NCBI GenBank assembly: GCA_964291285.2
Contig: OZ219785.1
Coordinates: 1,120,001 to 1,184,000, forward strand
DNA from: Alphaproteobacteria bacterium
GTDB lineage: Bacteria; Pseudomonadota; Alphaproteobacteria; Bin95
Reading direction: 5' to 3'
Length of the DNA: 64,000 bases
This document shows, piece by piece, positions 13,151 to 36,958 of this stretch. Below the pieces are notes generated by a model. It ran no database searches. It worked only from the letters and a program-made list of their open reading frames with translations, and had not been told where the DNA came from. The stretch's first letter is position 1. The number at the start of each line of letters is the position of its first letter. The position numbers were made by a program, and so were the translations under genes.

Positions 13151-13178
13151 GGCGGTCATGGCAAGGCTGGTTTGCCGT

Positions 13179-14010: not shown

Positions 14011-14017
14011 TTCTATG

Positions 14018-14046
14018 TTGACTTCGCCGCCCCCCCCCCGTATTTA
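14018..14046 (+). promoter_or_regulatory. Putative sigma70 promoter with a C10 tract in the spacer
   Basis: TTGACT-17 bp-TATTTA, about 40 bp upstream of the RTX gene start; homopolymer at 14030-14039. Confidence 0.45.
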
Positions 14047-14085
14047 GGGACGACATTGTTGATCTGACGAGCGGAGGTATCCGGG

Positions 14086-16296: not shown

Positions 16297-16317
16297 GCCG
16301 ACCGGCCAGCCGGAAGA

Positions 16318-16350
16318 CTGCGGCCGCTCCTCGGCGAGGGGCGGCCGCAG
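16318..16350 (+). terminator. Strong stem-loop between the RTX gene and the T1SS genes
   Basis: CTGCGGCCGCTCCTC-GGC-GAGGGGCGGCCGCAG; no U-tract, so it may be a stability or pause hairpin. Confidence 0.5.
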
Positions 16351-16557
16351 CCGCGATTACCGCAATCAGGGCAGGGGGCGCCAACCTGTTTGCGGCAGAC
16401 CGTAAGCCCGGTGGACAGGGCTATGCGGGAGCGAACGGTTTCGTGCGGGCCATGTCGCGGGAACCGGTTCCGTTTCATCTGATTGCACGGGGCGCGCCGG
16501 ATGCCGGCGCGGGCGGTGACACGTCGGGCGACGGTGCAGGGGACGACTTTCATTATC

Positions 16558-18348: not shown

Positions 18349-19642
18349 GGCGGGGCGCCGGGCCTGGCCGGTGGGCGGTCCGGTTCGGTTTGGGCTGGTA
18401 ATGCTTGGCGCGGGGTTTGCGGGCGCGCTGGCGTGGGCCTCGGTGGCGGAGATTCACGGTGCGGTGATCGCGTCGGGCAGCATGGAGCTGGAATCGCGGC
18501 GCCAGGCGATCCAGCATCCGGACGGAGGGGTTGTGGCGGCGTTGCCGGTGCGCGACGGGTCGCGTGTCGAGGCGGGGGCGGCGATCCTGGAGCTCGACGC
18601 CACCGGGCTTGCGGCGGAGCGGGCGATTCTGGTGCGTCAGTTGCAGGAGGCGCGGGCGCGCATCGACCGTCTTGCCTCGGAGGCCCGGTCCGGTGACGGG
18701 GTCTCGTTCCGGGACGCGGCGGCGGCCGAAGGGAACCCGGTGCTGGCGGCTCTGCTGGCCGGCGAGCGGCGGCTGTTCGAGAACGGGCGCGAGTCGCTGA
18801 TGCAGACGGTTGCGCAGATCGGCGAGCGCAAGGCGCAGACCGCGGCCTTCATCGAAGCGCTGCGGCTGCAGACGGAGGCCGTGCGGGACCAGCTGGCCCT
18901 GGTCAGGGCGGAGGTCCGCGACAAGCAGGGGCTGCTCGAGAAGGACCTGGTTCGCAAGCCGGAAGTATCGCGGCTGCTCCGGGAGGAGGCGCGTCTAAGG
19001 GGCGTGCTCGGCGAACTGGAGGCGGAGACCGCGCGGGGCCGGAGCGCGCTGGCCTCCTACGAGATCGAGCGGCTGCGCTTGCTGGCGGAGCGCCGCGAGC
19101 AGGCACAGGGCGAGATGCGCACGCTGCAGCCGCGCGAGGCCGAACTCGCCGAGCGCCTCCGGGTGGTGGAGACCCGCCTGTCGCGGCTCGTGCTGCGGGC
19201 GCCGATGGCGGGCGTGGTGCACGGGCTTCGGGTGTTCACCGTGGGCGGGGTGATCCCGGCGGGGACGGAAGTGGCGGCAATCGTGCCGGAAGGGGTGCCG
19301 CTGGCGCCCAGGGTCCGGGTCGAGGCGGCCCGGATCGACGAGGTCCGGGCCGGGCAGGAGGTGACGGTGGTCTTCCCCGCCTTCAATCTCCGCAGCGCGC
19401 CGGAGTTCACCGGGCGGGTGCGCACGGTGTCGGCCGACGCGCTGGTCGACGAGGCCAGCGGCGCCCGCTACTACACTGCGGAGATCGTGTTGGACGAGGA
19501 CTCCGAAGCCGCGGCCCGGGCGCGCGGCATCGTGCCCGGCATGCCGGTCGAGGCCTTCATCCGGACCCGCGCCCGCACGCCCCTCGCCTTCCTGCTCGAC
19601 CCCTTCATCGACTATGTCCGGCACGCCTTCCGCGAGGAGTGA
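18341..19642 (+). CDS. HlyD family type I secretion membrane-fusion protein (PrtE-like)
   Basis: N-terminal TM segment, IQHPDGGVV..L.VRDG, long coiled coil, LRAP..GVV, PGMPVEAFI; GTG overlaps the ABC stop. Confidence 0.93.
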   Translation: MTEAGRRAWPVGGPVRFGLVMLGAGFAGALAWASVAEIHGAVIASGSMELESRRQAIQHPDGGVVAALPVRDGSRVEAGAAILELDATGLAAERAILVRQLQEARARIDRLASEARSGDGVSFRDAAAAEGNPVLAALLAGERRLFENGRESLMQTVAQIGERKAQTAAFIEALRLQTEAVRDQLALVRAEVRDKQGLLEKDLVRKPEVSRLLREEARLRGVLGELEAETARGRSALASYEIERLRLLAERREQAQGEMRTLQPREAELAERLRVVETRLSRLVLRAPMAGVVHGLRVFTVGGVIPAGTEVAAIVPEGVPLAPRVRVEAARIDEVRAGQEVTVVFPAFNLRSAPEFTGRVRTVSADALVDEASGARYYTAEIVLDEDSEAAARARGIVPGMPVEAFIRTRARTPLAFLLDPFIDYVRHAFREE

Positions 19643-20136
19643 AGCGCCCGGGAGAAGGGGGGCAATGCACGCCGGGCCGGGGACGGCGCCGTCAGGCCGC
19701 GCACCGCCTTGCGGGCAGGAGACCGCCGCACGCCGTTCATGACGGCCTGGCCGGCCATGATACGGCGGACACCACCGGGGCCGGCCTCGCGGCGCACCCG
19801 ATACCGGAGCGGGAGGCCCGGAACGCGTGGCTTCGGGCGAATGCGGGAACAGGCCGGCTCTCGAGCATGCAGGATGCGGAACGCTGTTCCGGCAGCTTGC
19901 CGCGATGAAAGTCGCGGCCATGTCCTTCACCCGTTTGATGACGCCCCATGGGGCGGATCTTTGGCCGGTCCGTTGCAGGCAATGGCCCGGCCGGATACTC
20001 ATACTCACATCCTTGTGACCGCCGGAGCATTGCCCCGGCCGCGGTTATGGGAGAGGATTGCTGCACTTAACACCATCGACGCCTCCAAGCGAATATCGAG
20101 ACGGACGGAAAATCACACTTCAATCTTACTGGCGCG

Positions 20137-22521
20137 TCAGCCGACGAAGTCGAAATCGGCCTCGGTCAGTTGCGACGCCTGGATCCCCACCACGGTAACA
20201 GTCCCCAGGGACCAGGTGATGACCGCGCCGCTGTCGGACTGCCGGATCACGAGGTCGTCGAAGTCGAGCTCCGAGTCTTCCGTGTAGAAGTCGATGCGGT
20301 CTATTCCGTCCTCAAAGCCGACGATCTTGTCGTCGCCGCCCTTCGTGAATCCGAACGAGTCGTAGCCCGGGCGGCCCCGGAGCGTGTCGTCGCCCTTGCT
20401 GTCGTCGAGTGCCCAGTCGGGCAGGCCGACGAAGTGAAAATCGGCCTCGGTCAGTTGCGAAGTCTGGATCCCCTCCAGGGTGATGGTCCCCAGGGACCAG
20501 TTGATGGCAGCGCCGCTGTCGGACTGCCAGATCTCAAGGTCCTCGAAGCCGAGTTCCCCGTCGATCGAGTGGAAGTCGAGGCGGTCCGTTCCGTCCTCGA
20601 AGTCAAGGATCGTATCGTCGCTGCCATCGTTGAATCCCCACTGGCTCCAGTAGCCCTTCTCGAAGAAACCGAATCGGTCGGCGCCCTCCCCGCCCCGGAG
20701 CGTGTCAACCCCCAAACCACCCGAGAGGAAATCGTTGCCCTTGCCGCCTTCCAGCGTGTCGTCGCCGTTACGACCGGTCAGAAAGTCGTGGCCGTCCCCA
20801 CCCCAGAGCTCATCATCGCCCGAATTGCCGCGGAGGAGGTCGTTACCCCCGCCGCCATAGATTATGTCATCGCCTTTTCGACCGTAGAGCTTGTCGTCAC
20901 CCGAGTTGCCGTAGATCGTGTCGTCGCACGCGGTGCCAAAGAGCCAATCGCGGTCCGCGCTGCCACGAATGGTCACGCCGCAGGCCTCAACGTCGAGCGT
21001 CCCATCGCCCGAAGTGCCCGGGATCGTGTCTTTGTCCTCGCCGCCGTCGTTGTCATCGTCGAGGGGGTTGCCGCCGTCGTTGTCGTTATCGAGGGGGTTG
21101 CCGCCGTCGTTGTCGTTATCGAGGGGGTTGCCGCCGTCGTTGTCGTTATCGAGGGGGTTGCCGCCGTCGTTGTCGTTATCGAGGGGATTGCCGCCGTCGT
21201 TGTCGTCGTCGCTCGTACTGGCGCCGTAAGCGGCCTTTTCGTCGCCGCCACCGCCAGCAGGCAGGATGAAGTCGTTCGCATCCAGACTGTCTGCCGACAC
21301 GCCCGACAGCCTGATCGTGTCGCCGCCGCCGCCGTAGCGAATGACGGTATCGGCGCCGTCCTGCTCGATGACCAGTGCCGTGAACCCGCCGGATACGCCG
21401 TCGAGGCGAATCCGGTCGCCGGCTCCGAAGTCGGTAATGATGTCGGCGCCGTCTCCCGCCTCGAACACGAAGGTGTCGGCGCCCTTGCCGCCCCCCAGCG
21501 TGTCATCGCCCGCGCCGCCGCGCAGCGTGTCGGCACCCCTGGCGCCGCGCAGCGTGTCGTCGCCCGCGCCGCCGTCCAGCGTGTCGTTGCCCTTGCCGCC
21601 CCCCAGCGTATCGTCGCCAGCCCCGCCGGTCAGCGTGTCGGCGCCCAGGCCGCCATAGAGGAGGTCGTCGCCGGCCCCGCCGATCAGCGTGTCGGCGCCC
21701 CCGTAGCCACGCAGGGTGTCGGCGCCATCACCACCGGTGAGCGTGTCCGCGTCCTTGCTACCCTTCAGCACCTCCCCGCCAGAAGGCCCGCCGCTCGAGG
21801 CATCATCGTCGCCGTCATCGTTGCCGTCCGGCGGCGCACCCTGTGCAGGAGCGTCCTCGCCGCCGCCCTCCGGCGAGGCTGCCTCGACGGGAAGAAACCG
21901 GAAGTCGTCCGCGCCAAGGGAGGCCGCCGTCACGCCCTCCAGCTTGATCGTGTCGCCGTCGCCGTAGCGGATGACGGTATGGAAGCCCTTCTGCTCGATC
22001 ACCAGATCCCCGAAACCGCCGGACACCCCGGCGATCTCGATGATGTCGCCAGCCTCGAAATCGCCGATGTAATCGGCCCCGTCGCCGACCGCGAACGCAA
22101 AGACGTCATGGCCACTGCCGCCATAGAGCGAGTCCGCGCCCCGGCCGCCGGTCAGCCTGTCGGCGCCCCGGCCGCCTTCCAGACGGTCGTTGCCCGCACC
22201 GCCATAGAGCGTGTCGTCCCCGTCGCCGCCATAGAGCGTGTCGTTGTCCGTGCCGCCGTCCAGCGTGTCGTCGCCCGCGCCGCCGTCCAGCACATCGTTG
22301 CCAGCGCCGCCGTCCAGCGTGTCATCGTCCGAGCTGCCGGGGTTCATGAGGAGAAAGTCCGCGTCGGCTCCCGGGCTTGCGGTTCCGCCCGTCAGCGTGT
22401 CGTCGCCGTCGCCGCCCGTCAGGATGTCGTCGCCGAGGCCGCCCGTCAGGATGTCATTGCCGAGGCCACCCGTCAGGGTGTCGTCGGCAGCGCCGCCGGT
22501 CCGGGAAATATCCTGTGTCAT
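20137..22521 (-). CDS. Second RTX-type calcium-binding secreted protein, modular
   Basis: GGxGxDxL repeats, two pairs of duplicated non-repeat domains, acidic linker; GAGGAG RBS. Confidence 0.92.
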   Translation of the reverse strand: MTQDISRTGGAADDTLTGGLGNDILTGGLGDDILTGGDGDDTLTGGTASPGADADFLLMNPGSSDDDTLDGGAGNDVLDGGAGDDTLDGGTDNDTLYGGDGDDTLYGGAGNDRLEGGRGADRLTGGRGADSLYGGSGHDVFAFAVGDGADYIGDFEAGDIIEIAGVSGGFGDLVIEQKGFHTVIRYGDGDTIKLEGVTAASLGADDFRFLPVEAASPEGGGEDAPAQGAPPDGNDDGDDDASSGGPSGGEVLKGSKDADTLTGGDGADTLRGYGGADTLIGGAGDDLLYGGLGADTLTGGAGDDTLGGGKGNDTLDGGAGDDTLRGARGADTLRGGAGDDTLGGGKGADTFVFEAGDGADIITDFGAGDRIRLDGVSGGFTALVIEQDGADTVIRYGGGGDTIRLSGVSADSLDANDFILPAGGGGDEKAAYGASTSDDDNDGGNPLDNDNDGGNPLDNDNDGGNPLDNDNDGGNPLDNDNDGGNPLDDDNDGGEDKDTIPGTSGDGTLDVEACGVTIRGSADRDWLFGTACDDTIYGNSGDDKLYGRKGDDIIYGGGGNDLLRGNSGDDELWGGDGHDFLTGRNGDDTLEGGKGNDFLSGGLGVDTLRGGEGADRFGFFEKGYWSQWGFNDGSDDTILDFEDGTDRLDFHSIDGELGFEDLEIWQSDSGAAINWSLGTITLEGIQTSQLTEADFHFVGLPDWALDDSKGDDTLRGRPGYDSFGFTKGGDDKIVGFEDGIDRIDFYTEDSELDFDDLVIRQSDSGAVITWSLGTVTVVGIQASQLTEADFDFVG
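21040..21210 (-). repeat. In-frame 30-bp tandem repeat (about 5.7 copies) encoding DNDNDGGNPL
   Basis: GAGGGGGTTGCCGCCGTCGTTGTCGTTATC repeated at 21061, 21091, 21121, 21151 and (variant) 21181, plus a partial copy. Confidence 0.95.
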
Positions 22522-22676
22522 CGCGCTCTCTCCTCAACGCATGGGTCCATGGCAGGGCATGAAGGCATCCCGAGCCGAAAGTCTATTCCGTGCCGGCAGC
22601 CGCGGCAAGCGCCCAGGGAAAATTTTTAGTCGAACCGCGGGCTTTGTCTGAGTGATGTCGGTCTGGCTGCCGGTGT

Positions 22677-23080
22677 TTGCCGTGAAAATTGTTGGGGATC
22701 GGGCGCAAAAAAAACCTCCCCGCCAAAGCACTGCTCCCGAGGCGTCCGATACTCGCCATCTGCGGCGCCCGTCTTGCGGACCCTGACCGGTAGGCAACCC
22801 CGTAAAAGCCCGAAGTCCCGCCCGCGCGGCCGGCACCTGTTTTCATGATACGGGGTGGCCGACCCGCCCGACAATGAAGGTTTTGCCGTGAAAATTGTTG
22901 GGGATCGGGCGCACAAAACCCCTCCCCGCCAAAGCACTGCTCCCGAGGCGTCCGATACTCGCCATCTGCGGCGCCCGTCTTGCGGACCGTGACCGGTAGG
23001 CAACCCCGTAAAAGCCCGAAGTCCCGCCCGCGCGGCCGGCACCTGTTTTCATGATACGGGGTGGCCGACCCGCCCGACAA
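22677..23080 (+). repeat. Two tandem copies (206-bp period) of a 198-bp non-coding element
   Basis: 22677-22874 and 22883-23080 nearly identical; third inverted copy at 31905-32102. Confidence 0.93.
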
Positions 23081-23228
23081 TGAAGGTTTTGGGGAACCCC
23101 AGACGTTTCTGGCCGCCGTCATGGTGGTTTCTTGATGCCGCGGTCCAGTGTTTTCGTCCTCGACGGGCGCAGTTGTTTTGCTGCGCCGTTCTTCGGCCCG
23201 AGCCTGTATTGCGGTGGGGGGTGGGGTA

Positions 23229-25025
23229 TCAGCCTCTGGGCGCGATCATAATCGCGTCGAGGGCCTCTTGGGCGCGGGCGGCGTAGTGCCGGTTGGCCTC
23301 GGGTACATATCGGAAGCGTCCGTCGCAGCGCACGATAGCGATGGCCGCGTTGCTCAAGCAGGCCAGATTTCCGGGCAGGTGGCGCACATATGCCCGGCAA
23401 CGGTCTTCGTCATAGGTGAAGTCACGCACATAGTGCACACGGTTCTCAATGTGCCAGTGGTTGCGCACCAGATCGAGAAGCTCCTTGGGGCCGGCTCGCT
23501 CTGCGCCAAGCGACGTCAGGCTCCAGGTGACCTCGATGCTGCGCTTGCCGGTTTTGAGCATCTTGCGCTCGCGTTCCATGCGCATTGCCTGGCGGCGCCC
23601 GTGAAGGTGGGCGTAGCCGTCCCACTCGGCAGCGCAGAGGTCGACGACGGCGCAGCGTCGGCGCTCAATGCGACCATGGCCCTTGTCGACGGTTTCGTGC
23701 CAGGGCGCATCGCTGAAGTCGATCGCCTTGAGGTCTTCGAGGATGGTCTGCTGGTTGCCCTTCACCGCGCTGACCACGTAGTCGGCACGGCGTTCGAGCA
23801 GGCAACGCGCGGTCTCGTGCTGGGCGTGCATCGCATCGATGGTGACGATCCGGCCTGTGAGGTCGAGACCGCTGGAGAGTTCGCGCACGGCCGGGATTTC
23901 GTTGCTTTTGGAGCTGACTTCGACCTGCCCGAGGACCACGCCGGTGTCATGCGCCACCGCAGCGACCATCCTCCTGCGCCGGTCTTCGCTCTGCTTCGAG
24001 GCACCGCGCAAATCCTTTCCGTCCATGGCCACAGGCGCGTGCGCACTGCTGTGCTGTCCGGCCCACTGGCCGATGGCATTGTCCAGGGTCTGTGGCGGCA
24101 GGGCGGCGAGGATGTTGTGGAAGGTGGTGACCGCCGGCGGCGTGTAGCACTGCCTGGATGGGCTCCAGAAGGCGCCCACCGCCTTGAGTTGCTTCTGGGA
24201 GAGCAGGGCGGCGAACTGGGCGAAGGCGTTCACACCCCGGTATCCGGCAAGCCGGGCGGCAACGGCCAGCGTCAGAATGGTGGTGAGCGCATAGCGCTTG
24301 CCCCGGGCATGGCGGTATTCGGGCACCTCGCCCAAACACTCGAACAGGCTGCGCAGCCGGGGCGCCGCCATCGGCTCGGTGTGCTGCTCAGCGTTCCAGT
24401 CTGCCGGTATCTCGGGATGGCTCAGCGCCTCGGGGGCGCCGTGTGTCAGTTCGAACACGAAGACCTCCTTGGGCTGGCCGTGGTGACGCCAGCGCGCCAC
24501 CCCTCCGGGCTCGCGGGCAAAGCCGCGCGTCAGACCCAAAGAGCGCCAGTTGGCCGCGCGGTAGCAGGTGCCGGCGAAGCGCGAGACGTCCACAAACGTC
24601 TCCGCCACAACAGCCGGATAGCCATGCGCCGCCCGCAGGTCCTGCGACAGCCGCCGCACGCTCAGCCCCAGCACCCGCGAGGCAAGGTTGGGAACCCGCT
24701 CAGGCGTCAGGATGACAAAGCGCGAGTTGTTGGCAACCAGATGCAGGCGACGGAACTGCTGCTCCGCCGACCACCCGATCCAGCGGTCCCGCGCTCCCAC
24801 CTTGAACGCTCCAGGCTGCCAGCCAACCAGGGCAAGCCAGGCCTCGCCATGAACCGCGACATGGCGCAGACCCTTGCCGATGATGCCGTGGAACCGCAGA
24901 TAGTGGTGCGCCGCTACCAAATCGTCCCAGCGCCGGTGCTCCCGTGCCCCCCAGGTCGGGCGCACCGTGACCGCGCGAAGATCAACCCAAACACCCGCAA
25001 ACAGAAACCTCGCCATGACCGGCAC
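23229..25025 (-). CDS. ISAs1-family transposase with N-terminal DUF4338 (DruA-like) domain
   Basis: N-terminal HHYL, NNSRF, NLAS, ETFVD..RF.GTCYRAANW; C-terminal AMDGKDLRG, KSNEIPA, TIDAMHAQ, VRNHWHIEN; start 25025 or 25016. Confidence 0.88.
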   Translation of the reverse strand: MPVMARFLFAGVWVDLRAVTVRPTWGAREHRRWDDLVAAHHYLRFHGIIGKGLRHVAVHGEAWLALVGWQPGAFKVGARDRWIGWSAEQQFRRLHLVANNSRFVILTPERVPNLASRVLGLSVRRLSQDLRAAHGYPAVVAETFVDVSRFAGTCYRAANWRSLGLTRGFAREPGGVARWRHHGQPKEVFVFELTHGAPEALSHPEIPADWNAEQHTEPMAAPRLRSLFECLGEVPEYRHARGKRYALTTILTLAVAARLAGYRGVNAFAQFAALLSQKQLKAVGAFWSPSRQCYTPPAVTTFHNILAALPPQTLDNAIGQWAGQHSSAHAPVAMDGKDLRGASKQSEDRRRRMVAAVAHDTGVVLGQVEVSSKSNEIPAVRELSSGLDLTGRIVTIDAMHAQHETARCLLERRADYVVSAVKGNQQTILEDLKAIDFSDAPWHETVDKGHGRIERRRCAVVDLCAAEWDGYAHLHGRRQAMRMERERKMLKTGKRSIEVTWSLTSLGAERAGPKELLDLVRNHWHIENRVHYVRDFTYDEDRCRAYVRHLPGNLACLSNAAIAIVRCDGRFRYVPEANRHYAARAQEALDAIMIAPRG

Positions 25026-25123
25026 ACTGCCATATCAAGAAAAAAATAGCCACCCCGGACCCCACCTCAACATGGCCCAAAGGCAGACAATTAATTCGCC
25101 CTGGAGGAAAGCACCGCTTCGAG

Positions 25124-26193
25124 AAATTTGCGCTGTGGGGTTTTTTCGGTCGGATGGGACGTTGGGTCCGGGTGTTGATGTTGTTTGTTCCGGCGTTCGA
25201 GGCGGTCGCCGCGGTTGCTTTTCGAACTTGAGCGGCCCAGCCCGGCAGCATCGCCGGCCTTCGGTCGCGTTTGTCCGTATGCCGGGGTCCGGCGGGTTGG
25301 ATCAGCGTTGTCGGCAGCCGGCTGAGGGGTCAGCCGGTATCGAGGTATGGCGCCGGGCCGACCAGGGAGCGCATGCGTGCGACGCGTCTGGCGCGGGCCT
25401 GTGCAAGCGCCATGGCCATCATGACCGCCAGGGCCAGGCCGATGCGGGTCTTCATCCTGGCGCGACCGCGGATGTAGTGGGTCTCGAAGTTGAAGCTGCG
25501 GTCGAGGCGGGCGTTGATCCGCTCCATGGCGGTGCGCCGGTTGTATCCGCGTCGCCATGACGGGCTGCCCCAGGGCGTGGGCGTGAAGAGGCGCCGGTCA
25601 TGGCTGTCGAGATCGACGCGCAGGATGCGGCCGTATTCGCCGGACTTCACCCCACCCGCCCGATGGCAGGCCCGGCGTCCCTTGCACTCGAAGCCGAAGG
25701 CGGCTGCGGGGCAGCGGTATTTGAGCGTGCCGCAGACGCCGCGCCCGGCCTCGAACCCCTGGAAGGCCATGGCGCGGACCTCGCCGGTCTGCGGGCACAC
25801 GCAGGACACCCGGCCGCGTTCGTCATGAACGATGACGTCGGCGCGCCCGGGGAACAGCGGTCGCGTGATCGGCCGGGCCGGGTCATGGCCCGGCTCCTTC
25901 TTCTCGACCCGCCACATCGGGCGCGTGTCGATCAGCGGGCGGATATGCCACCTGTCCCACAGCCGCGCCTTCAGGCGGGCGTTGTCGAGACCGCGGTCGG
26001 CGCTGAAATCGGCGCAGCGCCCGGCCATCTCCGGCGCCCCGGCGAACAACTCCTCCAGCATCCCGGACAGCACCCCGGGTTCCGATGCCGACGCCCGCGT
26101 CACCTCGAAGGCCACAGGAACCTCGTAGTCCGTGTCGGCGATCAGGTGAAGCCCGTAGCCGAACCACGACTTCACCTTCTTCCACACCGCGCC
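25124..26193 (-). pseudogene. DDE transposase remnant, 5'-truncated at the recombinase-pair end motif (open frame 25330-26187)
   Basis: KSWFGYGLHLIAD, SADRGLD, YNRRTAMERINARLD; N-terminal part absent. Confidence 0.85.
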
Positions 26194-26243
26194 CGCACCG
26201 GTGGGTGCTAACTATCTGACGCAGCGTCGTTTTTTCTCCCGAA
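26194..26243 (+). repeat. Conserved 50-bp element end, internal copy
   Basis: CGCACCggTGGGTGCTAACTATCTGACgcAGCGTCGTTTTTTCTCCCGAA, 46/50 identical to the reverse complement of 51080-51129. Confidence 0.93.
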
Positions 26244-26312
26244 GTGTAGCGGTCGGGCAAGCGGGTCGCAAGGGCCCGTTCCCCGCCTGCAACTGGAGCC
26301 GGGAGAAACGCA

Positions 26313-27437
26313 ATGGCGAAGACTACCCTCACCGAGGCGCGCGTGAAGGCGCTCAAGCCCCGCAGGTCCGTCCGCGAGGTCCGCGACGGCAGGCTCAGGG
26401 GGTTCGGCGTCCGGGTGTCGCCCTCGGGCCGCAAGCAGTTCTTCATCCACTGCCAGCATCGCGGCGCGCGTATCTGGAAGATCGTCGGCGACGCCGGGTC
26501 GATGAGCGTCACGGACGCGCGGGCTGCGGCTGCGGACATGCTCACCGCCATCAGGCGCGGCGGGGAAGCGCCGCCTGCGCCGGACGAGACGGTCTTCGAG
26601 GCTGTCGCCGAAACCGTGTTCGAGCGCCATGAGCGCCTCTGGAAGGCCGGAACGCTCCATGTGAACCGGGGCTACCTTCGCAATCAGCTGCTGCCGCATT
26701 TCGCCGGGCGTCCGGTTGCCGCCATCGACCGGCAGGAGGTAAGGAACTGGTTCGCCCGCCTGCGCGCGGTGCCGGTGGCGGCCGACAGGTCGATGCCGGT
26801 GCTGTCCGTCATCATGAGGGAAGCGGAGGCCATGAGCCTGCGCCCGGAGGGTTCCAACCCCTGCCGGGGCATCCGCCGCTACCGCCGCAAGGGCCGCGAG
26901 CGGTTCCTCCCGGACGAGGAAATCCGTCGCCTGTCCGGAAGACTCAAGGCGCATGAGGCCTGCTGGCCGCAGCATGTCGCCGTCATCCGCCTGCTGCTGC
27001 TGACCGGCTGCCGCAAGGGCGAGATCCTCACCCTGCAATGGTCCGATTACCGCGAAGGCCGCCTGTTTCTCCGCGATTCCAAGACGGGGCCGAGAACCGT
27101 CTGGCTGTCGGAGCCGGCCCGGACGGTGCTTGATCGTCTCGAGCGTAAGGGGCGATGGATATTCCCCGCATCTCGGGGCGACCGGCCCCGGAGCGGGTGC
27201 TGGCTGGACCACTTCTGGCGCAGGGTCCGCGCCGAGGCGGACCTGGAGGACGCCCGCCTTCACGATTTGCGCCATACGCATGCGAGCCTTGCCCTCAGGC
27301 AGGGCGAGACGGTGCTCGCCATCGGCAAGCTGCTGGGCCACCGCAGGCCGGAAACCACGCTGAAATATACCCATGTCGCCGACGCCATGGTGCAAGACGC
27401 AGCCGAGACGGTCGGCGCCGTGCTGGAGGCAGACTGA
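26313..27437 (+). CDS. Tyrosine recombinase A of pair 1 (N-terminal arm-binding domain)
   Basis: GFGVRVSPSGRK arm domain; TGCR, SKTG, HDLRH, LLGH, TLKY catalytic set intact. Confidence 0.95.
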   Translation: MAKTTLTEARVKALKPRRSVREVRDGRLRGFGVRVSPSGRKQFFIHCQHRGARIWKIVGDAGSMSVTDARAAAADMLTAIRRGGEAPPAPDETVFEAVAETVFERHERLWKAGTLHVNRGYLRNQLLPHFAGRPVAAIDRQEVRNWFARLRAVPVAADRSMPVLSVIMREAEAMSLRPEGSNPCRGIRRYRRKGRERFLPDEEIRRLSGRLKAHEACWPQHVAVIRLLLLTGCRKGEILTLQWSDYREGRLFLRDSKTGPRTVWLSEPARTVLDRLERKGRWIFPASRGDRPRSGCWLDHFWRRVRAEADLEDARLHDLRHTHASLALRQGETVLAIGKLLGHRRPETTLKYTHVADAMVQDAAETVGAVLEAD

Positions 27438-28582
27438 TGGCGGGCCGGGAACGGATGAAACTCACCGACGCCGCCGTCGCCCGTCTCCGCCCCCGCGGGC
27501 GGGAATATACGGTCCGGGACACGCGCATCGCCGGCCTTGGCGTCCGGGTGCGGCCCACCGGCGGGCGCAGCTGGGTGCTGCTGCTCGACAGCGGCGGGCG
27601 CACCAGGCGCGTCTCGCTCGGCCCGGTTGGCGTGAAGAGCGCCGCCGAAGCCCGCCGGGAGGCTCTCGAGCGCCAGGCGGCCCCGCAGCCGGAGGAGACA
27701 GCCGCGCCGCCCGGCGCGGCCCCGCTGTTCCGGGATTTCGTCGCGGGTTCGTGGAAGCAGGCACACTTCGACCGCTACAAGCCGTCGGGCCAGCAAACCG
27801 CGTCCGGGATACTCCGGCGACAATTGCTTCCCGCATTCGGCCCGAAGCCGCTCGACCGCATTGTGCCGGGCCATGTCCGGCAGTGGTTCGACCGCTACAG
27901 CCGGACCGCACCCGGCGGCGCCAACCGCGCTTTCACCCTCCTTCACCAGATCATGAACTTCGCCCTCGCCTGCGGTCATGTCGAGGTCAATCCGGCCAGG
28001 CACATGAGAAGGAACCGCCGCCCGGCACTCACACGGTTCCTGTCCCGGGAGGAACTCGCACGTCTCCATGCCGCCCTGGACGCGCAGACCCGGAAGAGCG
28101 CGCGGCAGCAGGCCGACATTGTCCGGCTGCTGCTGCTGACCGGCTGCCGCAGAAGCGAGATCACGGGCCTCGGCTGGTCGGAAGTCCGCGAGGACGGGCT
28201 GGCGCTCACCGATGCCAAGACCGGACCGAGGACCGTTCCGCTCGGCAGCGGCGCGCGGGCCATTCTCGACCGGCAGCCGCGCACGGGCAGCGCGTTCGTG
28301 TTTCCCTCGCCGCGCGACCCCGCCCGCCCGCGCAGCCCCGACCTGCCGCTCTGGTACCGCGTCAGACGCGAAGCCGGCATCGGGGATGTCCGCCTCCACG
28401 ACCTGCGCCATACCATGGCCAGCCATGCCGTCATGAACGGCGTGCCCGTTCCGGTGGTCTCCCGCCTGCTCGGACATTCCGATGTGCGCATGACGCTGCG
28501 CTATGCCCATCTCGCCGACCGCGACATCGAAGCCGCCGCGGAACGCGTCGGGCAGGCCATGAACGCCATCATGGAGACATAG
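27437..28582 (+). CDS. Tyrosine recombinase B of pair 1 (N-terminal arm-binding domain)
   Basis: TGATG coupling to A; GLGVRVRPTGGRSW; TGCR, AKTG, HDLRH, LLGH, TLRY intact. Confidence 0.95.
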   Translation: MAGRERMKLTDAAVARLRPRGREYTVRDTRIAGLGVRVRPTGGRSWVLLLDSGGRTRRVSLGPVGVKSAAEARREALERQAAPQPEETAAPPGAAPLFRDFVAGSWKQAHFDRYKPSGQQTASGILRRQLLPAFGPKPLDRIVPGHVRQWFDRYSRTAPGGANRAFTLLHQIMNFALACGHVEVNPARHMRRNRRPALTRFLSREELARLHAALDAQTRKSARQQADIVRLLLLTGCRRSEITGLGWSEVREDGLALTDAKTGPRTVPLGSGARAILDRQPRTGSAFVFPSPRDPARPRSPDLPLWYRVRREAGIGDVRLHDLRHTMASHAVMNGVPVPVVSRLLGHSDVRMTLRYAHLADRDIEAAAERVGQAMNAIMET

Positions 28583-28856
28583 CCAAGGCTGAGGCGATCA
28601 ATCTGCTCCTTCATGACCAGACAGCACGATATCCGATGGTGCGGCGCCCGTGCGGGTGCTGCGCCGCATGGCCCGAAGCTGTGACAGCGGTCCCGGGCGT
28701 TTGCAATTAGGCTGCTGCCTGTGCTATCAGGCCGTGGAGAGAGGGGAAGAGTCGTGGCGGAGATGCCGGGCGAGTTAGCGATGCGCAGGCTGCTGCGGCT
28801 GTTGGGCCGGGGCGCGACCGCCTCGCGCGCGCGTGACCTTTTCGTACCCCCCCCCC

Positions 28857-31716: not shown

Positions 31717-31904
31717 CTTACCACCTAACCGTGATTCGTGACTTCGGTATCCTGATATTGCCAATTCGATGCAATCATTCAAGAGTCTGCCGACACTTGG
31801 TTATTTTGAACACAGGGCTTGACGTGGATTGACCAGCTGGTCCCGTGGCTCCTGACACCCTGGCCGGTAACCCTGTTGCGAACGTATGGACGGCCCAACG
31901 TCCA

Positions 31905-32102
31905 TTGCCGGGCGGGTCGGCCACCCCGTATCATGAAAACAGGTGCCGGCCGCGCGGGCGGGACTTCGGGCTTTTATGGGGTTGCCTACCGGTCACGATC
32001 CGCAAGGCGGGCGCCGCAGATGGCGAGTATCGGACGCCTCGGAAGCAGTGCTCTGGTGGGGAAGGTTTTTTTGCGCCAGATCCCCAACCATTTTCACGGC
32101 AA
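31905..32102 (-). repeat. Third, diverged, inverted copy of the 198-bp element
   Basis: Colinear with 22677-22874; 6-bp terminal inverted repeat TTGCCG...CGGCAA. Confidence 0.9.
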
Positions 32103-32175: not shown

Positions 32176-32361
32176 ATGCAGACCCTGAGCGCCAAGGATG
32201 CGAAGTACGGCTTTGGCCGGTTGATCGATCTGGCCCGCGCTGCACCCGTCGCCGTGGCCAAGCACGGACGGCCTGTCGTTGTCGTGCTCTCCGTTGAAGA
32301 GTACCAGCGGCTGAAGTCGCTGGATGCGCCCGAGGCACCCCCTGCACGGGAGGAACGATGA
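32176..32361 (+). CDS. Phd/YefM family antitoxin-like protein (no cognate toxin adjacent)
   Basis: MQTLSAKDAKYGFGRLIDLAR..PVAVAKHGRPVVVVLSVEEY. Confidence 0.88.
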   Translation: MQTLSAKDAKYGFGRLIDLARAAPVAVAKHGRPVVVVLSVEEYQRLKSLDAPEAPPAREER

Positions 32362-32395
32362 TGAGCGCCATCGGGCTGGCGGGCCGGTGACCGCC

Positions 32396-34801
32396 ATGGA
32401 CAAGCGCGGCCTCTCCGAACGCGATATCTGCACCAAGTTCATTACCCCCGCCCTGCGCCGGGCAGGGTGGGACGAGATGCTCCAGATCCGCGAGGAGGTG
32501 AGCTTCACCAGGGGCCGCATCATCGTTCGGGGAAAACTGGTCACACGGGGGCAGGCGAAGCGCGCCGACTATGTGCTCCATGTCAAGCCCAACATCCCGT
32601 TGGCTGTCATCGAGGCCAAGGACAACACTCACAGCGTCGGCGACGGCATGCAGCAGGCCCTCGACTACGCTGAAACGCTGAACGTTCCCTTCGCCTTCTC
32701 CTCCAACGGCGACGGCTTCGTGTTCCACGACCGTACGGGCGCGAGCACACCGCGCGAAGCGGATCTTGCCCTGGACGGGTTTCCGCCGCCTGCCGACCTT
32801 TGGGCTCGCTACCGGGCCTGGAAAGGGCTTGCCCCGGAGGTCGAGGACATCGTCCTTCAAGACTATCACGACGACGGCAGCGGCAAGACCCCGCACTACT
32901 ACCAGACCAGCGCCGTGAACGCCGCTGTCGAGGCCATCGCCAGGGGGCAGTCGCGCATTCTTCTCGTCATGGCCACCGGCACCGGCAAGACCTACACCGC
33001 CTTCCAGATCATCTGGCGGCTGTGGAAGGCGGGACACAGGAAGCGCATCCTGTTCCTTGCCGACCGCAATGTGCTGGTCGACCAGACGAGGGTGAACGAT
33101 TTTCGCCCGTTCGGCGCCGCGATGGCCAAACTGTCCTCCCAGGCCAAGACCATGCAGCGCGACGCCGGAGGCGCCTTGCGCATTGATACCGCCTACGAGA
33201 TCTACCTCAGCCTCTATCAGGCGATCACCGGCCCCGATGAATACCAGAAGGCTTACCGCGAGTTCTCTCCCGGTTTCTTCGACCTGATCGTCGTCGACGA
33301 ATGCCATCGCGGCAGCGCCGCCGATGATTCGGCCTGGCGCGAGATTCTCGAGTACTTCTCTTCCGCCACCCAGATCGGCCTCACCGCCACGCCGATAGAA
33401 ACAAAATACGCATCCAACATCGCCTGGTTCGGTGAGCCGGTGTTCTCCTACTCGTTGAAGCAGGGCATTCGCGACGGCTTTCTCGCACCCTACAAGGTGG
33501 TCAAGGTTCATATCGACCGCGATGTGGAGGGCTACCGTCCGGAAAAGGGTCAGCTCGACCGCTGCGGCGAGCCGGTCGCGGACCGCATCTATAGCGGCAG
33601 GGACTTCGACCGCACGCTGGTCATCGACGGGCGCACGAAACGGGTGGCGCAGAAGGTCACGCAGTTCCTCAAGGAAAGCGGCGACCGCTTTCAGAAGACC
33701 ATCGTCTTTTGCGTCGATCGGGAACACGCCGCGCGCATGCGTCAGGCCCTTATCAACGAAAACGCCGACATGCTGGACGGCCATCCGCACTATGTCGTGC
33801 GTATCACGGGCGGCGACGCCGAGGGACTGGCCGAACTCGACCGCTTCACCGACCCGGAATCGAAGCATCCCGTGCTCGTCACCACCTCACGACTGCTCTC
33901 CACGGGCGTCGATGTGCAGACCTGCCGGCTGATCGTTCTCGACCGCAATGTCGGTTCGATGACCGAGTTCAAGCAGATTGTCGGCCGTGGCACCCGCGTA
34001 CATGAGGACACGGGCAAGTTCTATTTCACGCTGATCGACTTCCGCGGCGCCACCGGCCATTTTGCCGATCCGGAGTTCGACGGCGAGCCCGTGCAGATCC
34101 ATGAACCCGGGGCGAACGATCCCATCGATCCGCCCGACGCGCCGCCGGGCGATGATGACGGGGATCCGCTTTCCGGCGACGACGAGACGGTCGGCCCCGG
34201 TCCCGGCTTTCCGTCCCCGCCGGGGGGCGGGCCGATAAAGAAGGTCTATGTCGATGGTATCGACGCGACCGTCGTGGCCAAGCGTGTGGAGTATCTCGAC
34301 GAGCACGGCAGGCTCGTGACCGAGTCGTTGCGCGATTTCACCAGAAAGGCCCTGCGCAGGCGTTTTGCGAGCCTCGACAATTTCCTGAGGCGCTGGAATG
34401 CCGCCGAGCGGAAGCAGGCGGTCATCGAGGAGATGGCGGCCGAGGGGCTGCCGATGGATGTGCTGGTCGACGAGTTGGGCAAGGACCTCGATCCCTTCGA
34501 CCTCATCTGCCACATTGCCTTCGGTGCCAAACCGCTGACGCGCCGCGAGCGGGCCGACAAGGTCCGGAAGCGCGATGTGTTCTCGAAATACGGGGAGCGC
34601 GCCCGCGCCGTGCTTGATGCGCTGCTCGACAAATACGCCGACGAGGGCATTCTCAACCTGGACGACGCCAATGTGCTGAGGATTCCGCCTATCGACAGGC
34701 TGGGCACTCCGCTCGAACTGGTCCGGGCATTCGGCGGAAGGTCCGGTTTCGAGCGGGCCGTTCACGACCTTCAGTCCTCTCTCTACAGGGAAGCCGCCTG
34801 A
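32396..34801 (+). CDS. hsdR: Type I restriction enzyme R subunit (EcoAI/EcoEI-like)
   Basis: ADY...VIEAK nuclease motif, ATGTGKT, DECHRG, QIVGRGTR. Confidence 0.95.
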   Translation: MDKRGLSERDICTKFITPALRRAGWDEMLQIREEVSFTRGRIIVRGKLVTRGQAKRADYVLHVKPNIPLAVIEAKDNTHSVGDGMQQALDYAETLNVPFAFSSNGDGFVFHDRTGASTPREADLALDGFPPPADLWARYRAWKGLAPEVEDIVLQDYHDDGSGKTPHYYQTSAVNAAVEAIARGQSRILLVMATGTGKTYTAFQIIWRLWKAGHRKRILFLADRNVLVDQTRVNDFRPFGAAMAKLSSQAKTMQRDAGGALRIDTAYEIYLSLYQAITGPDEYQKAYREFSPGFFDLIVVDECHRGSAADDSAWREILEYFSSATQIGLTATPIETKYASNIAWFGEPVFSYSLKQGIRDGFLAPYKVVKVHIDRDVEGYRPEKGQLDRCGEPVADRIYSGRDFDRTLVIDGRTKRVAQKVTQFLKESGDRFQKTIVFCVDREHAARMRQALINENADMLDGHPHYVVRITGGDAEGLAELDRFTDPESKHPVLVTTSRLLSTGVDVQTCRLIVLDRNVGSMTEFKQIVGRGTRVHEDTGKFYFTLIDFRGATGHFADPEFDGEPVQIHEPGANDPIDPPDAPPGDDDGDPLSGDDETVGPGPGFPSPPGGGPIKKVYVDGIDATVVAKRVEYLDEHGRLVTESLRDFTRKALRRRFASLDNFLRRWNAAERKQAVIEEMAAEGLPMDVLVDELGKDLDPFDLICHIAFGAKPLTRRERADKVRKRDVFSKYGERARAVLDALLDKYADEGILNLDDANVLRIPPIDRLGTPLELVRAFGGRSGFERAVHDLQSSLYREAA

Positions 34802-34803
34802 AC

Positions 34804-36255
34804 ATGGCTGTCAGCCCCCTCGTGAAGTCCATCCAGGACGTCATGCGCCAGGATGTGGGCGTGGATGGCGACGCCCAGCGCATCGGCCAACTCTGCTGGA
34901 TGTTCTTCCTCAAGATCATCGACGATCAGGACCAGGAACTCGAAGAGCTCAGGGAAGGCTATCGCTCGCCCATACCCGCCAACCTGCAATGGCGCGCCTG
35001 GGCCGCCAACCCGGAGGGTGTTACCGGCGAGGAACTCCTCGACTTCGTCAACGGGAAGCTCTTTCCGGCCCTGAAGAATCTCCCGCCGGGGAATGGTCCC
35101 CGCGCCCATGTTGTTCGTGCCGTGTTCGAGGATGCCTGGAACTACATGAAGTCGGGCCAGTTGATGCGTCAGGTCGTCAACAGGATCAACGGCATCGACT
35201 TCAACGATCTGGCCGAACGCCAGCATTTCGGCGACATCTACGAGCAGGTCCTCAACGACCTGCAGTCAGCCGGCAATGCGGGCGAATACTACACGCCGCG
35301 TGCCGTGACCTCCTTCATGACCCGGATGATCGACCCGAAGCCTGGCGAGACGCTGTTCGACCCGGCCTGCGGTACCGGCGGATTCCTCAGCTGCGCGATC
35401 CGCCACATGCGCGAGCGCCATGTCAAGCGCCCCGAGGACGAGGCCCGCATGCAGGCTTCGTTGCGCGCCGTGGAAAAGAAGCCGCTTCCCCACATGCTGG
35501 CGACTACCAACATGCTGTTGCACGGCGTCGAGGATCCGTCCTTCCTGCGCCATGACAACGCACTGGCGCGTCCCTGGATTTCGTGGGGACGGGACGAGCG
35601 TGTGGACATCGTTCTGACCAATCCACCCTTCGGCGGCAAGGAGGAGGACGGCATCGAGTCCAATTTCCCGAAGCACTTCCGGACGCGCGAGACCGCGGAC
35701 CTTTTTCTGGCCCTCATCATCCGGCTGTTGAAACCCGGCGGCCGGGCGGCCGTGGTCCTGCCCGACGGCTCGCTGTTCGGCGAAGGCGTCAAGACCCGGC
35801 TCAAGGAGAACCTGATGAAGGAATGCAACCTGCACACCATCGTCCGGCTGCCGAACTCGGTCTTCCGCCCCTACGCCTCGATCGGGACCAACCTGCTGTT
35901 TTTCGAGAAGGGCGAGCCGACGCAGGAGGTCTGGTTCCGGGAGCATCTTGTGCCCGAGGGGCAGAGAGCCTATTCGATGACGCGTCCCATCCGGCTGGAG
36001 CATCTCGACGATTGCGCCGCCTGGTGGGGCGGACAGGAACGCAAGGGCCGCACCGAGGGTGGGCACGCCTGGAAGGTGAGCGCCGGGGACATTGAGGCGC
36101 GCGGCTACAATCTCGACATCAGGAACCCGCACACGGAGAGTGCCGACCTCGGCGACCCGGAGACGCTGCTCGCAGAGTTGAATGCCGCCGAGGCCGAAGT
36201 CGCATCGTTGCGCGACCGGCTGAAGGACGCCTTGTCGGAAGCGTTGCTGCGATGA
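34804..36255 (+). CDS. hsdM: Type I RM N6-adenine methyltransferase M subunit
   Basis: GEYYTPR, DPACGTGGF motif I, NPPF motif IV. Confidence 0.96.
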   Translation: MAVSPLVKSIQDVMRQDVGVDGDAQRIGQLCWMFFLKIIDDQDQELEELREGYRSPIPANLQWRAWAANPEGVTGEELLDFVNGKLFPALKNLPPGNGPRAHVVRAVFEDAWNYMKSGQLMRQVVNRINGIDFNDLAERQHFGDIYEQVLNDLQSAGNAGEYYTPRAVTSFMTRMIDPKPGETLFDPACGTGGFLSCAIRHMRERHVKRPEDEARMQASLRAVEKKPLPHMLATTNMLLHGVEDPSFLRHDNALARPWISWGRDERVDIVLTNPPFGGKEEDGIESNFPKHFRTRETADLFLALIIRLLKPGGRAAVVLPDGSLFGEGVKTRLKENLMKECNLHTIVRLPNSVFRPYASIGTNLLFFEKGEPTQEVWFREHLVPEGQRAYSMTRPIRLEHLDDCAAWWGGQERKGRTEGGHAWKVSAGDIEARGYNLDIRNPHTESADLGDPETLLAELNAAEAEVASLRDRLKDALSEALLR

Positions 36256-36300
36256 CGCCGGGCAAGGGTATTGTTTGCCGCCTGCGCAGGAGGACTGGCC

Positions 36301-36612
36301 ATGCACGCCGCCATTGCTGACAAGAAAGACAAGTTGGCGGAACTGTGCCGCCGCTACGATGTTGTGCGTCTGGAAGTGTTCGGCTCGGCAGCGCGGGGCG
36401 CGGATTTCGATCCCGCCACAAGCGATGCCGACTTTCTGGTCGAATTCGATCCCGTCAGCAACCTGCGGCCGTTCCACCGGCGTTTCGATCTCGCCGAGGC
36501 ATTGCGGGAGGCGCTTGGCTGTCCTGTCGATCTGCTCGAAACCCGCGCGATCGGCAACCCCTATCTGCGCGCGGCCATCGACAAGTCCCGCGAGCTCGTC
36601 TATGCGCCGTGA
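36301..36612 (+). CDS. MNT minimal nucleotidyltransferase (antitoxin)
   Basis: FGSAARG...SDADFLVEF, VDL, NPYL. Confidence 0.9.
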   Translation: MHAAIADKKDKLAELCRRYDVVRLEVFGSAARGADFDPATSDADFLVEFDPVSNLRPFHRRFDLAEALREALGCPVDLLETRAIGNPYLRAAIDKSRELVYAP

Positions 36613-36958
36613 CCCTCGCGTCCCGCTGTGGGATGTCGAGCAGGCGGGCGCCGATATAGAGCGCTTCATCGAGGACATGGATCGCGATGTCTGGCTTCAG
36701 GATCGGCGGACCCAGGCTGCGGTCGAGCGCAAGTTCGAGATCATCGGCGAAGCGTTGAACCGCTTGCACAAAAGCCATCCCGAACATGCCGAGCAAATCC
36801 CCGACCTGCCCAGAATTATCGGTTTCCGGAACGTCCTGGCCCACGGCTACGACAGCATCGTGCCCGAAGATGTCTGGGACTATGCCCGGAACGATCTGCC
36901 GGCCCTGCGTGTCGTGGTGCAGGCCATGCTGAACGAGCTGGGACCGACGGAGACATGA
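36602..36958 (+). CDS. HEPN (DUF86) RNase toxin
   Basis: AVERKFEIIGEA and RNVLAH (R-x4-H); overlaps both MNT and hsdS. Confidence 0.9.
   Translation: MRRDPRVPLWDVEQAGADIERFIEDMDRDVWLQDRRTQAAVERKFEIIGEALNRLHKSHPEHAEQIPDLPRIIGFRNVLAHGYDSIVPEDVWDYARNDLPALRVVVQAMLNELGPTET

Follow-up and report, generated by a model that had tools for sequence, protein, structure and literature searches.

A 64-kb window of an alphaproteobacterial genome (contig OZ219785.1; G000:C1:1120001-1184000 in our coordinates, the window being the whole stretch of DNA that was analysed) contains two opposite-facing modules, each made up of an end motif followed by two adjacent tyrosine recombinase genes, A and B. Each module is likely to be the left end of an element, the two elements being copies from a single family of transposon-like integrative elements, whose insertion would be conservative and guided by homology to an overlap sequence. 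The observations that carry this reading concern a 10-bp sequence, ACACC followed by five further bases (N5), which stands at both junctions of the complete elements and looks like a target-site duplication; it is not a duplication, but a core that the element carries. An earlier reading of the window, made from the sequence alone, had proposed a mobile family with a pair of arm-domain tyrosine recombinases and large cargo, and this proposal is supported.

Two modules, two elements

Comparison of the window with itself recovers the arrangement that the sequence-only reading had reported twice: a 50-bp end motif, then A, then B. The motif appears as a 50-nt inverted repeat (26194-26243 and 51080-51129, 92% complementary), with further arms of 1115 nt for A and A' and of 735 nt for B and B', both at 75%. 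The modules thus agree at 92% over their first 50 nt, and their genes at approximately 75% in DNA. Similarity between the copies ends at CGCACCnnnnGGTGC, and there, as had been noted, the adjoining genes are cut: the DDE transposase of an insertion sequence (IS) is truncated to the left of module 1 (25121-26193), and a polysaccharide deacetylase beside module 2 has lost its C-terminal end. The ACACC that had been described 5-6 bp outside CGCACC can be read at both copies in the window. While the 14-nt palindrome is by itself not significant (6 matches against 5.6 expected, one mismatch allowed), the 50-nt motif and the gene pair together are far beyond chance, the motif recurring at 17 left ends of the genome and the tandem in 80 of the 80 best loci of a wider scan (see below).

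Module 2 begins element 2, a complete element at 12383-51130 within the deacetylase gene. It is a 38.7-kb insertion, since ACACCTTCCA stands at both junctions, the deacetylase frame resumes beyond 12373, and the locus is uninterrupted in six of nine loci of relatives; the G+C content of its interior is below that of the flanks. Element 1, which begins with module 1, is nested in element 2, inside one of the insertion sequences of the latter. No right end of element 1 was found in the 64-kb window; on another contig there is an orphan right end that continues into the right half of the target IS. The features of the two elements are as follows.

12249-12372, minus strand: C-terminal remainder of the polysaccharide deacetylase (flank y of element 2), with stop codon TAG at 12251-12249; continues the frame of the fragment from 51131 onwards, with 6 of 9 same-genus loci uninterrupted
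12373-12382, minus strand: right-junction 10-mer (attR) of element 2, ACACCTTCCA; under the model it would be element-borne, with ACACC as the right-terminal half-site and TTCCA as the overlap, as suggested by the E_C3a and E_C3b tests described below
12383-12715, minus strand: right end of element 2, approximately 330 nt, conserved and non-coding, with terminus ...GTCAGATAGTGCCCTAAC-N23-GAGATTT and subterminal inverted repeat at 12415-12442; the sole right end in the window
12767-13150, plus strand: small ribbon-helix-helix (RHH) open reading frame (ORF), NikA-like, accessory, inward from the right end; PF21983, E 7.5e-6, 26.4 bits, just below the cutoff of 27; present in 5 of 8 complete elements
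25121-26183, plus strand: left part of the 1.94-kb IS (query-copy positions 722-1784), target of element 1 and truncated by its insertion; intact copies read ...TTCCACACCGCGCC directly followed by GGTCTTCGCG
26184-26193, plus strand: left-junction 10-mer (attL) of element 1, ACACCGCGCC, native IS sequence
26194-26312, plus strand: left end of element 1, with CGCACC, palindrome GCACC-GGTG-GGTGC at 26195-26208 and subterminal inverted repeat at 26212-26240
26313-27437, plus strand: recombinase A, 374 aa, with Arm-DNA-bind_3, Phage_int_M and Phage_integrase domains; in the first-gene clade
27437-28582, plus strand: recombinase B, 381 aa, with the same domain set as A; its start overlaps the A stop codon (TGATG); in the second-gene clade
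48715-49881, minus strand: recombinase B' of element 2, 388 aa, from ORF and domain matches
49885-51009, minus strand: recombinase A' of element 2, 374 aa from the ATG at 51009, from ORF and domain matches
51010-51130, minus strand: left end of element 2, with G+CGCACC at 51130-51124, palindrome at 51115-51128 and subterminal inverted repeat at 51083-51111
51131-51140, minus strand: left-junction 10-mer (attL) of element 2, ACACCTTCCA, native target sequence, present as a single copy in the empty sites of relatives
51141-51900, minus strand: N-terminal part of the polysaccharide deacetylase (flank x of element 2); PF01522, E 4.7e-20

Further copies were sought in the whole genome (G000; 6.1 Mb in 5 contigs) by tblastn with the four recombinases and then by searches for the ends. 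The genome contains 37 tandem tyrosine-recombinase pairs, which fall into at least five families by identity to A (approximately 90%, 72-80%, 60%, 41% and 37%), and the end searches yielded 17 left ends and 14 right ends of the window's element family. Among the copies, DNA similarity is limited to the stretch from 26184/26194 to approximately 28561-28616, i.e. the left end with A and B; it stops at or just past the B stop codon, and the genes 3' of B vary between elements. Eight elements of this genome are complete (8.2, 8.2, 10.1, 10.1, 11.0, 21.6, 36.3 and 38.7 kb), as are three more in another genome, G003. What the eight have in common is confined to approximately 2.37-2.39 kb of left-hand and 290-800 nt of right-hand sequence, and an alignment of 17 right ends, including those of the three G003 elements, is conserved over approximately 330 nt. 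Both ends contain a subterminal inverted repeat of approximately 29 bp (CTATCTGACAnAGnGTCG..CTCCC), at a distance of 18 nt from the left terminus and 32 nt from the right one. The RHH ORF is 127 aa long, scores just under the Pfam cutoff and occurs in five of the eight; it is the only candidate encountered for a gene typical of integrative mobilizable or conjugative elements. No relaxase was seen among the called ORFs of the 8.2-kb elements, which were not scanned against family libraries. A structured RNA was considered for the 330-nt right end and rejected, the consensus fold being weak on either strand (-18.6 and -25.1 kcal/mol, covariance term approximately 2), and a search of the conserved right end against Rfam gave a single match at E = 0.79.

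A pair of arm-domain recombinases

All four recombinases have an arm-binding (Arm-DNA-bind_3), a core-binding and a Phage_integrase catalytic domain, the first of these (PF13356) scoring 35.5-41.5 bits against a cutoff of 27. The residues R234, K257, H317-x-x-R320, H343 and Y352 (A numbering) are invariant in the alignment of A, B, A' and B', so the catalytic set R-K-HxxR-H-Y is indeed kept in all four, and A is indeed far closer to A' (72% protein identity) than to B (43%) or B' (39%). The two genes are directly adjacent, with a 1-nt overlap in element 1 and a 3-nt gap between A' and B' in element 2. None of the four proteins approaches the NCBIfam equivalog models for XerC and XerD (37.8-76.4 bits against cutoffs of 329.6-335.15) or those for XerA and the integron integrase, where scores are again far below the cutoffs; the GmtZ model gives weak partial matches (E 9e-6 and 1.8e-5). 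At the protein level A and B belong with the DUF4102 (IntSXT/P4-type) integrases, DUF4102/Arm-DNA-bind_3 being given as the hallmark of the IntSXT subgroup (PMC8138268).

A census of recombinase genes with at least 300 aligned residues, taken from the window's genome and eight other loci, comprised 101 genes, of which 45 are first in a pair, 45 second and 11 solo; none has a recombinase neighbour on both sides, as the middle gene of a trio would, and neither this census nor the eight complete elements revealed a conserved third recombinase or accessory gene beside the pair. In a quick maximum-likelihood tree of the 101 (SH-aLRT support only, the careful search being unfinished), first and second genes cluster apart, with 4 label changes as opposed to approximately 32 (31.9) in shuffles. 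The first-gene group (support 92) takes in the 60% and 41% identity families of this genome, and also the first genes of pairs on plasmids of Aurantiacibacter atlanticus and Photobacterium damselae, on long branches and with unsure placement; one further recombinase family has its own first and second sister clades. On this tree, first genes and second genes are thus resolved as separate, old clades.

Could one recombinase alone move the element, the other having a separate job such as multimer resolution, control of direction or excision without integration? Single P4-type integrases suffice for most islands, and A is about as similar to single plasmid integrases of Shewanella (39% identity) as it is to B. 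Counting against such a division of labour are the A-B tandem itself, found in all 80 loci and in the 45 pairs examined, the coupling of the two genes through the TGATG overlap, and the retention of every catalytic residue in both proteins across an old paralogy. The core, moreover, is asymmetric: its left side is ACACC and its right side CGCACC, in keeping with two different subunits. We consider it unlikely, on balance, that a single recombinase suffices.

Junctions, empty sites and a proposed mechanism

The right end of the element was revealed by the target of element 1, a 1.94-kb IS that is cut at IS position 1794. More than 20 intact copies of this IS are uninterrupted at the insertion point, and at two other element copies at the same position the right half of the IS lies 10-11 kb downstream, preceded by the terminus given above and then ACACCGCGCC. 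The junctions have the same form throughout: x-ACACC-N5-(G/A)CGCACC... at the left and ...GAGATTT-ACACC-N5-y at the right. Empty sites were obtained for eight distinct targets, namely the IS, x1, x2, x4, x7, the deacetylase, and the sites of two elements designated E_C3a and E_C3b. Those of the IS, x1, x2, x4 and x7 are paralogous copies in the same genome, native sequences being obtainable there since most targets lie in multi-copy repeats. For the deacetylase, a search of same-genus genomes with the flank alone led to nine loci: six orthologous loci are uninterrupted and contain the 10-mer once (...ATGACCTA(C/T)AC(C/G)TTCCACCCGCTGGT...), one (G010, L095) has the same junction and the same element end at the same base as the window, one (G012, L101) breaks at the same base and continues into unrelated sequence, and the last has no anchor. 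The insertion shared by the window's genome and G010 may be either old or recurrent.

Among the 11 complete elements, the left and right 10-mers are identical in six, differ by one base in four, and by three bases in one. The departures are one-sided. At all eight sites the left-junction 10-mer is that of the native target, while the right-junction 10-mer departs from the native sequence in 5 of 12 junctions (E_C3a, 7/10 matching; E_C3b, 9/10; C1:61498, 8/10; C4:508024, 9/10; C1:802219, 9/10). E_C3a is the most telling of these. It reads AGACCGCCGA at the left and ACACCCCTGA at the right, and if the left copy is the target's and the right copy is carried, the empty site should read x-AGACCGCCGA-y; this is what all seven same-genus orthologous loci, each of them empty, do read, barring polymorphisms of their own at two positions. 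The right copy, ACACCCCTGA, agrees exactly with the native 10-mer of x4, a different target, which is a repeat with 26 copies and harbours a sister element. At E_C3b (left ACACCAGCGA, right ACACCAGAGA) the site is uninterrupted in nine of nine orthologues, four of which have exactly the left version and none the right. Since the empty sites of both elements match the left copy, the ACACC+N5 at the right belongs to the element.

A true target-site duplication, produced by 10-bp staggered cuts of the recombinases or a host factor and subsequent repair synthesis, with imperfect repeats arising through later point mutation, had been our working reading until these two empty-site tests (7/7 and 9/9), after which it was dropped. 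It accounts for the perfect repeats in six of the 11 elements, unique sites included, and mutation could explain the four elements that differ at a single base. Against it, E_C3a differs at three of ten positions, despite 98% identity between its flank and the nearest orthologue, the differences fall at right junctions only (5, against 0 of 8 sites at the left), and the same 10-mer occurs at unrelated sites. Tyrosine-recombinase chemistry is in addition conservative and leaves no primer for fill-in, and the 8-kb elements have no DDE, HUH or Cas1 gene in common. Duplication thus appears quite improbable. We also rejected the 3-4-nt hypervariable spacer of the left-end palindrome as the place of crossover; the empty IS site puts the junction outside CGCACC, and the spacer has no consistent relation to the target flanks.

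The targets themselves are varied. Four insertions share one position of the 1.94-kb IS (three followed by unrelated sequence after B, the fourth, on C5, matching only to position 28561), with differing contexts outside the IS, and three share one position of an IS5-like element; overall, the genome offers at least 12 distinct target contexts and no single conserved integration site. The earlier proposal that the recombinases move large cargo into protein-coding genes is therefore upheld as regards size, complete elements measuring 8.2-38.7 kb, and needs correction as regards targets, which are 10-bp ACACC+N5 sites, many of them in insertion sequences, rather than protein-coding genes as such. 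Over the 11 complete elements, carried and target pentamers agree at a mean of 4.55 of 5 positions, as compared with 1.42 of 5 for random ACACC-adjacent pentamers of the genome, where the chance of full agreement is 0.003. Two further copies, at G000:C1:201958 and G000:C2:434361, are 99.96% identical over 13,584 nt behind unrelated left flanks, their similarity starting exactly at ACACCACGGC and running inward; near-identical elements thus use unrelated sites at which one and the same 10-mer is native, and ACACCGGTG(A/C) recurs in three or four different contexts. These patterns suggest that the choice of target is guided by homology to the overlap that the element carries. Such guidance fits a general property of tyrosine recombinases, which perform conservative strand exchange across a 6-8-bp overlap and in most cases need overlap identity (PMC2817482).

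An element begins with a left end of approximately 120 bp, comprising (G/A)CGCACC, the palindrome GCACC-N3/4-GGTGC and the 29-bp subterminal inverted repeat, followed by the translationally coupled A and B genes, 5-36 kb of cargo and the 330-bp non-coding right end that closes with ...GAGATTT-ACACC-N5. For its movement we propose the following course of events. In the excised form the right end would be joined to the left, creating a core site of canonical geometry in which the overlap (N5, 5-6 bp) is bordered by TTTACACC as left half-site and CGCACC as right half-site. A and B, probably as a heteromer by analogy with XerC/XerD, would carry out recombination between this core and a target, for which ACACC and an overlap equal or nearly equal to the carried one would suffice. 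Insertion would then leave the target's own ACACC+N5 at the left junction and the carried copy at the right, which would look like a 10-bp duplication when the two are the same and would appear as a difference at the right junction when they are not. Target choice would thus be shared between protein, which recognizes ACACC, and DNA homology to the carried 5-bp sequence; this would explain repeated insertion at the same position of a multi-copy IS. As the far half-site of the target is not conserved, arm-type binding may compensate, with the subterminal repeats as candidate arm sites. The carried pentamer may change after a mismatched insertion. Given that sister elements differ in their carried pentamers, renewal from the left junction must take place at times, as is reported for SE elements (PMC10214605). 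In the window, element 2 split the deacetylase, and element 1 would later have entered an IS inside element 2 and then lost its right end.

Several points weigh against this reading. Neither an excised circle, nor a joined right-left junction, nor a tandem copy was seen in any assembly. Only E_C3a and E_C3b combine two informative junctions with an independent empty site; the restriction of differences to right junctions amounts to 4-5 cases, one of which was judged against a paralogue only 90% identical; and the right copy of E_C3b (AGAGA) fits no known native site, point mutation being an equally good explanation. For the perfect 10-mers at unique sites (the deacetylase and those in G003), the same pentamer must already have been carried, and no donor site was identified. 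Some copies are without a partner end, namely element 1 and the two 13.6-kb twins, which diverge after 13,584 nt with no right-end motif within 45 kb of either, and rearrangement confuses some pairings. (A right flank fitting the second twin, C2:434361, occurs on another contig at C4:278699.) The joint action of A and B as one two-subunit enzyme, and the part of each at the half-sites, are putative.

A bolder version, which we put forward tentatively and regard as possible rather than probable, is that of a re-addressable integrase. A/B would read only ACACC, the five bases being read by pairing with the carried right-end overlap and rewritten from the left junction at each hop, and the element would spread replicatively through strand-biased copy-out of the SE kind, whence the 17-21 copies in a genome. 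Were this so, a five-base change in the donor would retarget a cargo of at least 39 kb to chosen ACACC+N5 sites.

Known elements, distribution and cargo

Elements with several tyrosine recombinases are known, and the left-new, right-old logic of the junctions and the left-end recombinase genes are shared with some of them. Tn554-type elements combine one ordinary and one long recombinase (611-828 aa) with TnpC (PMC10214605, PMC3414803) and, like the window's family, have two adjacent tyrosine recombinases at one end, insert in a specific orientation, and carry a short core so that one junction reflects the previous site. In the window's family, by contrast, both recombinases are 374-388 aa long with an arm-binding domain, no TnpC-like or other third gene is conserved next to the pair, the core is ACACC+N5 instead of 6 bp, and both target sites and copies are numerous. 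In both Tn554 and SE a 6-bp 'fingerprint' or 'footprint' with left-new, right-old polarity is described (PMC10214605), and the same polarity, target copy at the left and carried copy at the right, is found here for E_C3a (7/7) and E_C3b (9/9). SE elements further resemble the window's family in their left-end recombinase genes, imperfect inverted end repeats, variable cargo (median 15.7 kb) and retention of target bases at attL with the old spacer at attR; their core is intA-tfp-intB-srap at 1-2 copies per replicon, with core-gene synteny reported only in Gammaproteobacteria, as opposed to alphaproteobacterial hosts, no tfp or srap, and up to 21 left-end motifs in one genome here. GInt (four core genes, ginA-D) and RIT (three overlapping recombinases, ritA-ritB-ritC) likewise place several tyrosine recombinases together at one end of a putative mobile island, but exactly two are conserved at the left end in the present case.

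Integrases of the P4/SXT type share the domain architecture, the R-K-HxxR-H-Y residues and a common core present in both element and target, but normally work alone and at a single fixed site, in many cases a tRNA gene, whereas two tandem paralogues are found here and the last five core bases vary from copy to copy. XerC and XerD, two paralogous tyrosine recombinases on an asymmetric core, offer an analogy for the sharing of work between A and B; Xer proteins have no arm domain, serve in chromosomal housekeeping and are not encoded in tandem on a mobile element, in contrast to the arm-domain, tandem, mobile recombinases described here, which lie far below the NCBIfam cutoffs. Fungal Starships have a 'Captain' tyrosine recombinase 5'-terminally, cargo that is very large and variable, and short direct repeats from homology between element and target; they are eukaryotic, with a single DUF3435 recombinase that is not known to be related in sequence. 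BIM of Cupriavidus is a two-gene module with a tyrosine recombinase, and was set aside as a prior description since its second gene, a conserved protein of unknown function listed as having an SMC domain, is not a recombinase (PMC3414803).

Taken together, none of the definitions of Tn554, SE, GInt, RIT or BIM is matched by the window's family, which their descriptions set apart, and the difference from RIT, Tn554 and SE that had been claimed from sequence alone thus stands. That the family nevertheless belongs to one already described (Tn554-related, SE, GInt or RIT) would be favoured by the shared junction logic and the weak GmtZ matches. We consider this very improbable, given that there is no recombinase above 600 aa, no third recombinase and no conserved gene like tfp, srap, TnpC, ginC or ginD, that the Arm-DNA-bind_3 domain of the IntSXT subgroup is present in both proteins, and that hosts are Alphaproteobacteria. 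In the literature searched, full-text coverage of which leaves out most subscription journals, no description was found of a tandem arm-domain integrase pair acting as a transposon, PMC4502571 and PMC9229058 proving irrelevant to the question. The family works like Tn554 and SE in junction polarity, and in chemistry like a classical integrase with a drifting common core. Least credible of all is that the pairs are not self-mobile and owe their copy number to IS hitch-hiking, segmental duplication and homologous recombination: many copies do lie inside multi-copy repeats, much of the interior of element 2 is repeated elsewhere and an IS with an insert could be mobilised in trans, but both boundaries are base-exact in unrelated flanks, unique chromosomal genes are split where relatives have empty sites, and the four insertions in the 1.94-kb IS differ in context outside it.

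Beyond this genome, an alignment of six A-type proteins was used to scan one genome per species; out of 336 loci obtained, the 80 best were retained. These come from alphaproteobacterial metagenome-assembled genome records (Defluviicoccus, Rhodospirillales and unclassified), often several from one genome, with the addition of two loci on a contig labelled Dehalococcoidia. A homologue of B lies directly downstream of A in all 80 (a few matches being short or cut by contig ends), and the palindrome GCACC-N3-5-GGTGC lies approximately 120 nt upstream of A in 64. The flanks of these 64 loci are unrelated except for an enrichment of ACACC at -12 to -8 (consensus base in 44-58 of 64 per position, in some loci shifted by one base), in agreement with its noted place outside CGCACC; a purine stands at -2 in 53 and C at -1 in all 64. 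In an even draw across the class, the left-end pattern occurs in 2 of 401 genomes (the window's with 21 matches, G328 with 11) and a control pattern in none; of the 16 other genomes belonging to the same genus, 13 have the left-end pattern (1-9 matches each), as opposed to none of 20 genomes from two sister genera. The family is thus rare overall and abundant where present. Among sequencing runs, three labelled 'organism A' contain 49-61% of the words sampled, and nine metagenome runs 5-7%. Right ends were more elusive: among five other genomes, the window's 178-nt right end was found only in G003, at three places, with no match in G001, G002, G004 or G005, presumably through divergence, and a fuzzy search for the motif at 80 related loci gave two matches, both unconvincing.

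Related pairs were also observed. The 41%-identity family (11 copies, G000:C1:792225 and ten others; L005) has a 2.55-kb conserved module of the same layout, with its left boundary reading flank, then (C)ACACCCGACG-CATCC-TTGATGC; the ACACC+N5 is mostly ACACCCGACG, with variants ACACCAGACG and ACACCCCACG, and is followed by a palindrome, GCATC-CTT-GATGC. As this family shares both layout and ACACC, the tandem architecture and the motif are older than the window's family. In cultured hosts, the plasmid pairs of Photobacterium damselae (L102, NC_014653.1 49487-52104; 373 and 511 aa, overlapping genes) and Aurantiacibacter atlanticus (L103, NZ_CP015441.1 30609-32911; 354 and 413 aa) are 34-38% identical to A and annotated only as site-specific integrases.

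The variable cargo (5-36 kb) includes, in other elements, outer-membrane proteins, a 2273-aa surface protein and others, and in element 2 the NikA-like RHH ORF, two RTX-repeat proteins, an ABC exporter, a type I restriction-modification system, a HepT-like gene and many insertion sequences. The RTX-repeat proteins (14086-16296, plus; 20137-22521, minus) and the exporter (16483-18348, plus) look as if they belonged to a type I secretion set. Other places in the genome repeat much of 12378-28580, with identity of 90% or more, and the sole genome-unique part of the interior contains hsdR (32324-34801), hsdM (34804-36255) and an ORF with a HepT-like toxin domain (36275-36958). In a 598-aa ORF at 23229-25025 (minus), DDE_Tnp_1_assoc and DDE_Tnp_1 transposase domains are preceded by an N-terminal domain that is DruA-like (PF14236, E 2.1e-19), an unusual fusion of a defence-system domain to an IS transposase. 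At 22676-23087, a 206-nt unit is tandemly duplicated (98% identical), with an inverted copy 9 kb away (31890-32102, 92-93% identity); these repeats may be the ends of another mobile element.

Transposons with multiple tyrosine recombinases (Tn554, SE, GInt, RIT) are few and poorly understood, and are mostly represented by single model cases. To these the window's family adds a fourth recombinase solution, in the form of two arm-domain integrases that are paralogues, together with rich natural data: its copies number in the dozens, and for many of them both junctions are available along with an empty site, be it in this genome or in a relative, so that the junction rule can be read from sequence alone. 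Such elements shape their host genomes, the window copy carrying secretion (RTX/ABC) and defence (type I restriction-modification, HepT) genes. If targeting depends on the carried pentamer, this would explain both the transposon-like behaviour of an integrase-type element and its pile-up in insertion sequences, and would provide a simple handle for retargeting the insertion of large cargo.

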